Source: Shigella phage SfMu
Length of the DNA: 37,146 nt
Sequence record: KP010268
Direction: 5' to 3' (one strand)
Made by a program: the position numbers and the translations under genes. Shown piece by piece: positions 31,871 to 35,466 of this stretch; position 1 is the stretch's first letter, and the number at the start of each line of letters is the position of its first letter. The notes beneath the pieces are model-generated. The model ran no database searches, was not told the origin of the DNA, and was given only the letters and a program-made list of their open reading frames with translations.

Positions 31871-33336
31871 TGTTTTATATTGATAACGACAGCGGCGTAA
31901 CCGTCATGCCGCCCGTATCCGCCCAGCGTAGTGCTATCGTTCGCTGGTTTTCAGAAGGTGACGGGAATAATGTTATCACATGGCCCGGCATGGACTGGTT
32001 TAATATTGTGCAGGCGGAGTTATTAAACACGCTGGAAGAAGCCGGTATTCAACCGGATAAAACAAAATTAAACCAGCTTGCACTGTCCATTAAAGCCATT
32101 ATGAGCAATAACGCGCTGCTGATAAAAAATAACCTCAGCGAAATTAAAACTGCCGGGGCATCAGCACAGCGTACAGCACGTGAAAATCTGGATATCTATG
32201 ATGCCAGCCTGAACAAAAAAGGACTCGTTCAGCTAACCAGTGCCACTGACAGCCCCAGTGAAACGCTGGCAGCCACCGCAAAAGCGGTGAAAATTGCGAT
32301 GGATAATGCCAGTGCCCGTCTGGCAAAAGACCGGAACGGAGCAGATATTCCCAATAAGCCGCTGTTTATCCAAAACGTCGGTTTACAGGAAACGGTAAAT
32401 CAGGCTTCTGGCGCATTACAGAAAAACCAGAACGGTGCAGATATTCCAGGAAAAGATACCTTCACCAAAAATATTGGTGCCTGCCGCGCATATAGCGCAT
32501 GGGTGGATATTGGTGGCGATAGTCAGGTCTGGACAACTGCGCAATTTATTTCGTGGCTGGAGAGTCAGGGGGCATTTAACCATCCTTACTGGATGTGCAA
32601 AGGCTCATGGGCTTATGCAAATAATAAGGTCATTACAGATACAGGTTGCGGAAATATTTGTCTTGCAGGTGCTGTGGTGGAAGTTATTGGCACTCGCGGC
32701 GCAATGACCATACGTGTTACTACACCGAGTACGTCCAGCGGTGGCGGAATTACTAACGCTCAATTCACTTATATTAATCATGGCAATGCTTATGCTCCTG
32801 GCTGGCGACGAGACTACAACACGAAAAACCAGCAGCCTGCATTTGCTTTAGGGCAAACAGGAAATACCGTCGGAAACGACAAAGCCGTTGGCTGGAACTG
32901 GAATAGCGGTGTTTATGATGCAGATATCAGCGGTGCATCAACATTAATCCTCCACTTCAATAAGAATACGGGGAGCTGCCCTGCTGTACAGTTCCGTGTG
33001 AATTATAAGAACGGCGGTATTTTTTATCGTTCAGCGCGTGATGGTTATGGATTTGAGGCTGGCTGGTCAGAGTTTTACACCACAACACGCAAGCCATCAG
33101 CGAGAGATGTTGGCGCATATACGCAGGCAGAATGTAACTCAAGGTTTATTACAGGTATTCGCCTTGGTGGTCTGTCATCTGTTCGGACATGGAATGGTCC
33201 CGGCTGGTCTGACAGGTCAGGTTATGTTGTTACCGGTTCCGTTAACTCAAACAGAGATGAACTAATTGATACAACTCAGGCAAGGCCAGTTCAGTATTGC
33301 ATTAATGGGACGTGGTATAACGCGGGGAGTATTTAA
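31870..33336 (+). CDS. S: Tail fibre protein S: constant part fused to the variable part of the G segment in the current orientation
   Basis: 488 aa; gix recombination site lies inside the ORF at 32366..32391; C-terminus ...[15 protein letters not shown] parallels the C-terminus of the inverted copy S'. Confidence 0.85.
   Translation: [488 protein letters not shown]
32366..32391. repeat. gixL recombination site
   Basis: TTATCCAAAACGTCGGTTTACAGGAA inside S. Confidence 0.8.
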
Positions 33337-33338
33337 CG

Positions 33339-33872
33339 ATGATGCACTTAAAAAACATTTCTGCTGGTAATCCTGAAACAAAAGAGCAATACCAGCTAAC
33401 GAAACAATTTAACATCAAATGGCTTTATACAGAGGATGGGAAAAACTGGTATGAGGAACAAAAGAACTTTCAGCCTGATACGTTGAAAATGGTCTATGAC
33501 CACAACGGCGTTATTATTTGTATTGAAAAGGATGTTTCAGCAATTAATCCGGAAGGCGCAAGCGTCGTTGAGGTTCCTGATATTACAGCAAATCGCCGGG
33601 CTGATATTTCAGGTAAATGGATGTTCAAAGATGGCGTAGTGATAAAGCGAACTTATACCGGGGAAGAGCAGAGGCAACAAGCGGAAAATGAAAAGCAAAG
33701 CCTGCTACAGCTCGTCAGGGATAAAACCCAGCTATGGGACTCACAGCTACGGCTGGGCATTATTTCCGACGAGAATAAACAAAAATTAACCGAGTGGATG
33801 CTCTATGCGCAGAAGGTCGAATCCACAGACACCTCCAGCCTGCCAGTAACGTTTCCCGAACAACCAGAATGA
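33339..33872 (+). CDS. U: Tail fibre assembly protein U
   Basis: 177 aa; N-terminal two-thirds nearly identical to minus-strand U' (MMHLKNI.AGN..T.EQY.LTK...[19 protein letters not shown]). Confidence 0.85.
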   Translation: MMHLKNISAGNPETKEQYQLTKQFNIKWLYTEDGKNWYEEQKNFQPDTLKMVYDHNGVIICIEKDVSAINPEGASVVEVPDITANRRADISGKWMFKDGVVIKRTYTGEEQRQQAENEKQSLLQLVRDKTQLWDSQLRLGIISDENKQKLTEWMLYAQKVESTDTSSLPVTFPEQPE

Positions 33873-33875
33873 AAC

Positions 33876-33895
33876 AAGGCCCGATATCGGGCCTT
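33876..33895. terminator. Bidirectional hairpin between convergent U and U'
   Basis: Self-complementary AAGGCCCGATATCGGGCCTT flanked by A/T runs on both sides. Confidence 0.7.
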
Positions 33896-33900
33896 AATTT

Positions 33901-34428
33901 TTATTCAGGCTTTTGTGGCCATTCAGGATTTGCCGTATCCACACGGCTGACCAGAACACTGTAGCGTTCCCATGACTCCAGTCGTGCGTGTTCCTCATCC
34001 GTCGCCATATTCAGCCTGACAGCGCGTTCCAGCGGCTGGATGACTGATTCAGCTTCGGAAAGTAACGCGGCCTTTTGTGATTCGGCCTGTTGCTGCTGTT
34101 CGTCTGCTGTATAAGTCCTCCTGACCACCGCTCCGTCCTTAAACATCCACTTCCCTGAATCATCGGCACGACGGTTAGCTGTTATATCGGGGATTTCAAC
34201 GACGCTAAAACCTTCAGGATTAAGCGTGGAGGCATCTTTAGTGACGGCGACAATAATATTATTTTCGTCGTAAACAATCTTTATTGTATCCGGCTGAAAG
34301 TTCTTCACTTCCTCATACCAGTTTTTCCCGTCTTCAGCGTAAAGCCAGATGACTCCGTGCTTCTTTGTTAACTCATACTGCTCCAGTGTTTTAGCATTAC
34401 CCGCTTTTATGTTCTTTAAGTGCATCAT
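33901..34428 (-). CDS. Alternative tail fibre assembly protein U'
   Basis: 175 aa paralog of U on the minus strand inside the G segment. Confidence 0.85.
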
Positions 34429-34429
34429 A

Positions 34430-35395
34430 TTAAACGCTCGCTACATTATACCATGTGCCATTTATATACTTTTGAACGGGTCTGTAATAAACGCCAGCTA
34501 TATTATCGGCAGAGTTTTTGCCTGTATCCTGAACATTAATACCAGACAATACATGACCTGAAGGGCACTGGAAATTCCATGTTTGCCAGTTATTCACACC
34601 ATAATATTGCTGTGAGCCAAGCCGGACATCTTTCACATATCTGGAGTCAAAATTGCCATAATTGCCGGGAATAACTTGCGCACCACAAAGCCAGTTACCG
34701 TTATTATCCATGTACGCCTGACCATCGGTGCCATTGGCTGTCCTTGAGTTATTAATCATGTAGATGCCAAATTGCTTATTTCCCAGACCGCCAATCATAA
34801 ATTTGCGGTCGGCATGGTCCTGACGGAGCAAAGCCTGAGCACCATCAGTGGATACCGCATTACGTCCCAAAATAACATTCTGGTCACGCATATGAATCCA
34901 CATGCCGGTACTACTGTTAATTGCAAAACGGTTTGCAAATATATCCCCTGTAACATCAAGACCATGCCCCATGCTTATCCGGCCAGTTCTGAGATTAAGC
35001 GTAAAGGGGCGTAGTGGCCCTATATTACCATTTTCCCCTTCATTCTCTCGTGTAGGGATGATATGCAGGCATTCTTCAGAACGACGAAAAATGGCACCAA
35101 AAGATGAATTAAATATCCTCAGTGCATTGACTGTCGATATTTTCACTTCACTGCTGAAAAGGGCTTCAACAAGAACAGACAAAGCATTCCATTTAAGATT
35201 CATCAGGTCTTTAGGCCGGGTGCCAATGATGCGGTGTCTCCATTTGAAATATTCATTGCCGTTGTTGCCTGTTTCAAACCACATGTAGGAATCGGTGTCT
35301 GCATCCGAATTATTTTTAAACCCAATCTTTGCCCAGTCAGTATTTCGAATCCAGGCAAGGATTGAGTCGTTTTCAAAAGTAAGTCCACCGGACAA
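34430..35395 (-). CDS. Alternative tail fibre variable part S' (no own start; expressed only after G inversion fuses it to the constant part of S)
   Basis: Minus-strand open frame continues through gixR without a start; C-terminus ...[15 protein letters not shown] matches end of S. Confidence 0.8.
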
Positions 35396-35440
35396 CGTAT
35401 CGCCTGTCTTTTGAACAGCGTTACCAGCCTTGTTTACCGT

Positions 35441-35466
35441 TTCCTGTAAACCGAGGTTTTAGATAA
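35441..35466. repeat. gixR recombination site
   Basis: TTCCTGTAAACCGAGGTTTTAGATAA, inverted copy of gixL with 2 mismatches. Confidence 0.8.

Follow-up and report, generated by a model that had tools for sequence, protein, structure and literature searches.

The Gin/gix invertible tail-fibre switch of Shigella phage SfMu, a member of the Mu family of host-range switches

The closest described counterparts of the tail-fibre region considered here are the G segments of phages Mu (AF083977) and D108 (NC_013594), the C segment (Cin/cix) of P1 and P7, and a cassette carried by P2-like Escherichia coli prophages, such as that of strain B1S11. In Mu, the constant N-terminal part of the fibre gene S (Sc) is followed by the recombination site gixL, a fibre arm, two chaperone genes, a second arm, the site gixR and the invertase gene gin. 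Members of the serine invertase family form a phosphoserine link through Ser9, make a staggered cut at a 2-bp core, rotate their subunits by 180 degrees and are activated by Fis (PMC3575834). Here, we analyze the corresponding region of Shigella phage SfMu, with the whole deposited sequence of 37,146 bp (KP010268; GC 51.9%) as the window. The region is the Gin/gix invertible tail-fibre (host-range) switch of the Mu family, already described in this published phage by Jakhetia and Verma (2015; PMC4406740), who gave the same length and GC content and placed SfMu in the G(-) orientation, with identities of 96/97/90/65%.

SfMu has the same order of elements as Mu, but differs from the Mu reference, which was deposited in the G(+) orientation, in the direction of the segment. 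Both flanks of the G segment align to Mu on the same strand with 97-98% identity, and positions 32366-34972 correspond to the opposite strand of the G segment in the Mu reference. Sc (residues 1-170, counted to the crossover dinucleotide; 31870-32379, plus strand) is 99.4% identical at the amino acid level to the first 169 residues of Mu S and D108 S, and contains a match to the Pfam family Phage_fiber_2 (residues 113-153). It is fused to a variable arm of 318 residues plus the stop codon (32380-33336, plus strand) that is homologous to Mu Sv' (95.0% amino acid identity), D108 S' (94.6%) and P1 Sv' (85.2%). The next gene on the plus strand (33339-33872, 177 residues) encodes a tail-fibre assembly chaperone (Pfam Caudo_TAP, E = 7e-37) homologous to Mu U' (97.7%). 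The minus strand carries a second chaperone of 175 residues (33901-34428; Caudo_TAP, E = 1.4e-36), homologous to Mu U (90.9%), and a second fibre arm of 340 residues plus the stop codon (34430-35452), homologous to Mu Sv (66.7% to residues 171-504 of Mu S). Lacking its own start, this second arm depends on fusion to Sc. The arrangement that defines G(+), with Sc joined to a Mu Sv-type arm and then to the 175-residue U, is absent.

Because the segment aligns to the opposite strand of the Mu G segment, and because of these protein identities, we assign it to G(-), in which the 488-residue Sc-Sv' fibre and U' are expressed, while U and the divergent Sv arm are silent. An original prediction for this DNA, made from the sequence alone, had placed the segment in the S-U expressing orientation, which the inverted alignment and the junction of Sc to Sv' followed by U' contradict. 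Alignment of the S and S' variable regions to the Mu, D108 and P1 fibres, a comparison proposed in that prediction, was what identified the expressed arm as Sv'. The D108 record, like that of Mu and unlike that of SfMu, is in G(+). The chain 8ju3, from the solved structure of Mu S' (that of Mu S is 5yvq), matches the Sv' fibre over its full length. Relative to Mu S', we count 18 amino acid differences in the SfMu S' protein, the first 147 residues being unchanged, in agreement with the published description (PMC4406740).

The suggestion that inversion to an alternative S'/U' pair would change host range stands in part. Inversion exchanges the fibre C-terminus together with its chaperone, as supposed, but S'/U' is the pair already expressed, and the silent alternative is Sv/U. 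SfMu has been reported to use the Shigella flexneri O-antigen rather than the K-12 lipopolysaccharide core, and expression of an S'-type fibre fits this published receptor use.

The segment is bounded by inverted repeats of 34 bp (32366-32399 and 35433-35466), which match at 32 of 34 positions; weaker similarity reaches 58 nt at 79% identity. They had been described as differing at a few positions, and this holds: the copies disagree twice, at position 32371 (C versus T) and at position 32377 (G versus C). Within them lie the two gix sites, which form an inverted pair of 26-bp sites, each with two 12-bp half-sites around a shared 2-bp core. GixL (32366-32391, plus strand) reads TTATCCAAAACG TC GGTTTACAGGAA, with the core TC at 32378-32379, and gixR (35441-35466, plus strand) reads TTCCTGTAAACC GA GGTTTTAGATAA, with the core GA at 35453-35454. 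On the other strand, gixR becomes TTATCTAAAACC TC GGTTTACAGGAA, so that the core dinucleotide is the same and the inner half-site is identical to that of gixL. The inverted repeats contain the crossover dinucleotide, and the possibility that they lie away from the recombination point, which the original prediction had left to be checked, does not apply.

Both mismatches fall in the outer half-sites. The outer half-site of gixL has G at 32377 where Mu has C, and that of gixR has A at 35461 where Mu has G (TTATCT on the other strand, compared with TTATCC in Mu); the mismatch at 32371 corresponds to gixR position 35461. The published account mentions a single base change in the inverted repeat, beside the crossover (PMC4406740), whereas two changes are found here relative to Mu, one per site. 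The 34-bp inverted repeats of Mu itself are perfect, unlike those of SfMu. However, D108 has exactly the SfMu pair, the same gixL (…AAAACG TC…) and the same gixR (TTATCT…), and the gixR variant also occurs in Mu_3F6 and in a prophage of E. coli RMDEC465. Imperfect gix sites are thus no peculiarity of SfMu. The outer half-sites stay with their flanks and take no part in the exchange.

The invertase gene, gin (35521-36114, plus strand, GTG start, 197 residues), adjoins the segment. Its product has an N-terminal resolvase domain (Pfam Resolvase, E = 7e-50) with Ser9 and a C-terminal helix-turn-helix (HTH_7, E = 2.4e-17). Its identity is 100% with D108 Gin and 99.5% with Mu Gin. At the 3' end of the gene (36100-36114), the TAA stop codon of Mu reads CAA, which adds the residues QIDR; SfMu Gin is consequently four residues longer than Mu Gin, with 197 residues (as in D108) compared with 193. 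SfMu, Mu and D108 do not differ in the first 120 nt of gin, a stretch that spans the position of the recombinational enhancer. A putative Fis-binding enhancer (sis) can be placed at 35539-35610 (plus strand), in the 5' end of gin, from the P1 annotation (cin nt 19-90), and a Fis-dependent enhancer is predicted there by sequence identity. In P1 and P7, the enhancer likewise lies inside the invertase gene, and the invertase is 77% identical to SfMu Gin.

The layout of the segment is that of a switch, with two convergent sets of fibre C-terminus and chaperone inside and the constant N-terminus and promoter outside. Where the U' and U genes converge (33876-33895), a terminator-like hairpin is predicted on both strands, and D108 is annotated with terminators there. 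When positions 32378-35454 were inverted in silico, both gix sites were regenerated and an in-frame Sc-Sv fusion of 510 residues was formed, followed by the 175-residue U. The open reading frames (ORFs), Pfam matches, homology and in-frame fusion in both orientations bear out the recognition of an invertible Gin/gix G segment in the original prediction. In the mechanism that these elements suggest, Gin, together with host Fis bound at the enhancer in 5' gin, would cut both inverted 26-bp gix sites at the central TC/GA, and the 3,077-bp cassette between them would rotate by 180 degrees, so that Sc continues in frame into either Sv' or Sv. The chaperone gene downstream (U' or U) would be exchanged at the same time and receptor specificity switched, while the outer half-sites would never be exchanged and would remain with the flanks.

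Given the identical gix pair in D108, the intact Gin and enhancer region and the occurrence of relatives in both orientations, we infer that the G switch is very probably active in SfMu and that inversion probably takes place. The exact variant gixL was found in 8 viral and 6 metagenomic contigs; the same 26-mer had no match in the genome contig collection. Where a Mu Sc flank is combined with the variant gixL, the arm that follows is Sv at 9 loci, Sv' at 3 and another arm at 2, with arms classified by peptide motif. Two contigs that both have the variant gixL (L005 and L019) carry their G segments in opposite orientations, although they share 99.98% identity in 4.2 kb of flank and 99.86% in 2.1 kb of the G segment. 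Across about 70 loci, no outer half-site variant is seen apart from its own flank, irrespective of the arm joined to it, as exchange at the core predicts. The P2-like prophages, which have a different outer half-site, are likewise found in both orientations.

Several observations weigh against an active switch. Induced and infection-grown lysates of SfMu share the same host range, and the authors of that study considered that the base change beside the crossover might slow or abolish inversion (PMC4406740). The variant base at 32377 directly adjoins the cleavage position. The presence of both orientations among the relatives might be due in part to homologous exchange within the near-identical Sc flank instead of inversion at the variant site. 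Inversion of the D108 G segment is reported in older literature; a search of the available library for experimental proof of it found nothing usable. In favour of an active switch, the change from C to G at 32377 falls within the core requirement quoted for Gin, AAASSWWSSTTT, which allows C or G (PMC5175349, the recCas9 paper), but this requirement was obtained with hyperactive Gin catalytic-domain fusions and not with wild-type Gin, so that its bearing is indirect.

The segment might instead be locked or invert very slowly, with the base change at 32377 blocking or strongly reducing cleavage or religation by Gin, S'/U' fixed and Sv/U left as a relic. The SfMu authors proposed this from the equal host range of the two lysates (PMC4406740), and the changed base does flank the cleavage point; in addition, the silent Sv arm is far more diverged from Mu than the expressed arm (66.7% compared with 95% identity). 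We nevertheless regard a locked segment as quite unlikely. It is difficult to reconcile with the identical gixL/gixR pair of D108, with copies of the variant gixL joined to Sv as well as to Sv', and with near-identical relatives in opposite orientations. The Sv and U frames are intact, Sv would fuse in frame to Sc, and Gin and the enhancer region are intact as well. The divergence of Sv points to mosaicism and not to decay, since close relatives of this variant, matching along its full length, occur in other phages and prophages. Equal host range is explained equally well if G(+) particles infect hosts outside the tested set, as the authors themselves remarked.

The silent arm deserves comparison in its own right. 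Its closest phage match is PhiR68_1 (82% amino acid identity), followed by P88 (80%), a P2 variant (76.5%), P7 Sv' (75.7%) and Mu S; the Sv arm of D108 is 65% identical to it. At the DNA level, the whole cassette is about 93% identical to cassettes of many E. coli P2-like prophages. Since the arm is intact, its divergence reflects module exchange and not decay, and we regard it, from these comparisons, as an intact mosaic receptor-binding module.

The C segment of P1 and P7 contains homologues of all four genes (Sv', U', U and Sv, with 85%, 94%, 90% and 65% amino acid identity), but differs in its length of 4.2 kb, its long inverted repeats, the cix core TT, the position of the invertase on the other side and a different Sc. 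The P2-like prophages share with SfMu the cassette and the 5' part of the invertase gene (about 93% DNA identity), the core TC and the inner half-sites. They differ in having a P2 H-type constant part, the outer half-site TTATCGAATACC and no counterpart of the first copy of the NGADIP repeat discussed below. In E. coli B1S11 (NZ_CP117717.1), a P2-like prophage at 7876-12747 carries an Sv'-U'-U-Sv cassette with the invertase at about 93% DNA identity, an arrangement common to many E. coli genomes.

Other loci combine these parts differently. The contig IMGVR_UViG_3300023289_000038 has two copies of the Mu Sc with the variant gixL, at 3770 and 6448 on opposite strands, one of them joined to a P1-like arm (GGTTTACGAGAA CTCGGCACAAGCGGG…); the double copy could be due to misassembly where a segment inverts, or to a cassette with multiple arms. 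In two further Mu-like elements (L015, at 1252, and L018, at 3378), the fibre arm that follows the variant gixL is of a third type (…VQRSGDKMTGELKIG… and …VQRSGDTMTGKLNLP…), so that G segments are not limited to Sv and Sv' in their content.

The S gene also contains a direct repeat, AACGG(A/T)GCAGATATTCC, at 32335-32351 and 32431-32447, which encodes the peptide NGADIP on either side of gixL, as had been stated in the original prediction. The two 17-nt copies are identical at 16 of 17 positions, and similarity extends to 26 nt at 88%; the SfMu sequence contains 2 matches, compared with 0.00 expected from 100 shuffles. NGADIP is encoded at residues 156 and 188 of the 488-residue fibre ORF. At the protein level, the repeat consists of in-frame units of 23 residues, spaced by 32 residues (96 nt), with 12 of 23 residues identical. 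Unit 1 (32317-32385, plus strand) is part of the Mu Sc and contains the first 17-nt core; its 3' end (FIQNVGLQE) is encoded by gixL. Unit 2 (32413-32481, plus strand), with the second core, comes with the Sv' cassette. Conserved versions of this unit are present in Mu Sv', D108 S', P1 Sv' and the P2-like prophages, the last of which have copy 2 downstream of a constant part (…VGRDILAKSTVAAVIEYLGL) without copy 1.

Two explanations had been offered for this repeat, a structural repeat of the fibre shaft and a footprint of past recombination, and the results favour the former. The copies lie at unequal distances from the crossover (27 nt before it and 52 nt after it), they are distributed independently, and the peptide is kept despite divergence of the DNA, with only 38 of 69 nt identical between whole units and synonymous variation among relatives (GGA, GGT and GGC; CCA and CCG). 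For these reasons, the NGADIP repeat is best described, on sequence grounds, as a structural motif of the fibre protein and not as a recombination scar. A Pfam scan of the 92-residue stretch that contains both units returned no family at E ≤ 10, so that no curated model covers the motif. By visual comparison, the unit seems to resemble a widespread fibre junction motif, N..D[IL]..K..[AF]..N[LIV]G[LA].

A scar of past recombination at gixL, for example a duplication made when the Sv' cassette was acquired, would account for the position of the copies on both sides of gixL with a spacing of 96 nt. GixL encodes the end of copy 1, and its counterpart in copy 2, at 32461-32486, agrees with a gix outer half-site in 8 of 12 bases (manual count); Sandmeier (1994) is reported to have proposed that exchanged fibre segments are bordered by invertase sites and site-like sequences. 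Beyond the asymmetry, however, identity is low outside the 26-nt core while the peptide pattern persists, and copy 2 accompanies the Sv' cassette in P1 and in P2-like settings where copy 1 is lacking. A direct repeat at the DNA level exists only in G(-), for in G(+) the copies are 3 kb apart and inverted. We therefore consider a scar highly improbable, and a scar resembling a target-site duplication is rejected from the asymmetry and from the established mechanism of serine invertases, which are not known to make target duplications.

The stretch at 32461-32486 reads TTCACCAAAAAT AT TGGTGCCTGCCG and is the unit 2 counterpart of gixL, with the outer half-site likeness given above and a poor inner half. 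It was rejected as a functional quasi-gix site, since its right half matches at only 4 of 12 positions and its centre is AT instead of TC. Its likeness to gix probably arises because the same peptide motif is encoded there. A more speculative proposal, which we hold to be improbable, is that the gixL of the D108/SfMu type, which has G in place of C next to the cleaved dinucleotide, might be a natural rate-tuning allele, slower or biased compared with Mu, and that the 23-residue junction motif, with its coding sequence similar to a gix half-site, might be a secondary site at which invertases exchange fibre cassettes among phages of Mu, P1 and P2 type.

The remainder of the window is that of a Mu-like phage. 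The sequence opens with the Mu left end (TGTATTGATTCAC…) and closes with the Mu right end (…GCGCCGCTTCA), and for most of its length it shares 95-97% identity with Mu, D108 and Mu_3F6. The genes of the right-hand 6 kb are gp47, gp48, S, the two chaperones, the second fibre fragment, the invertase, Com and Mom. By mechanical ORF calling, Mom (36306-37031) has 241 residues, compared with 231 residues annotated in Mu, and its start overlaps com. The extra "D108-specific" ORF that is present in D108 and Mu_3F6 is missing from the right end of SfMu.

Host-range switching by the G segment is textbook knowledge, and the SfMu copy is already published; what the present analysis adds is a correction of the orientation given in the original prediction and one minor clarification. 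The suggestion in the literature that the change beside the crossover disables inversion is weakened by the sites of D108 and by the near-identical relatives in both orientations. If the switch is active, SfMu lysogens should also release particles with the divergent Sv fibre.

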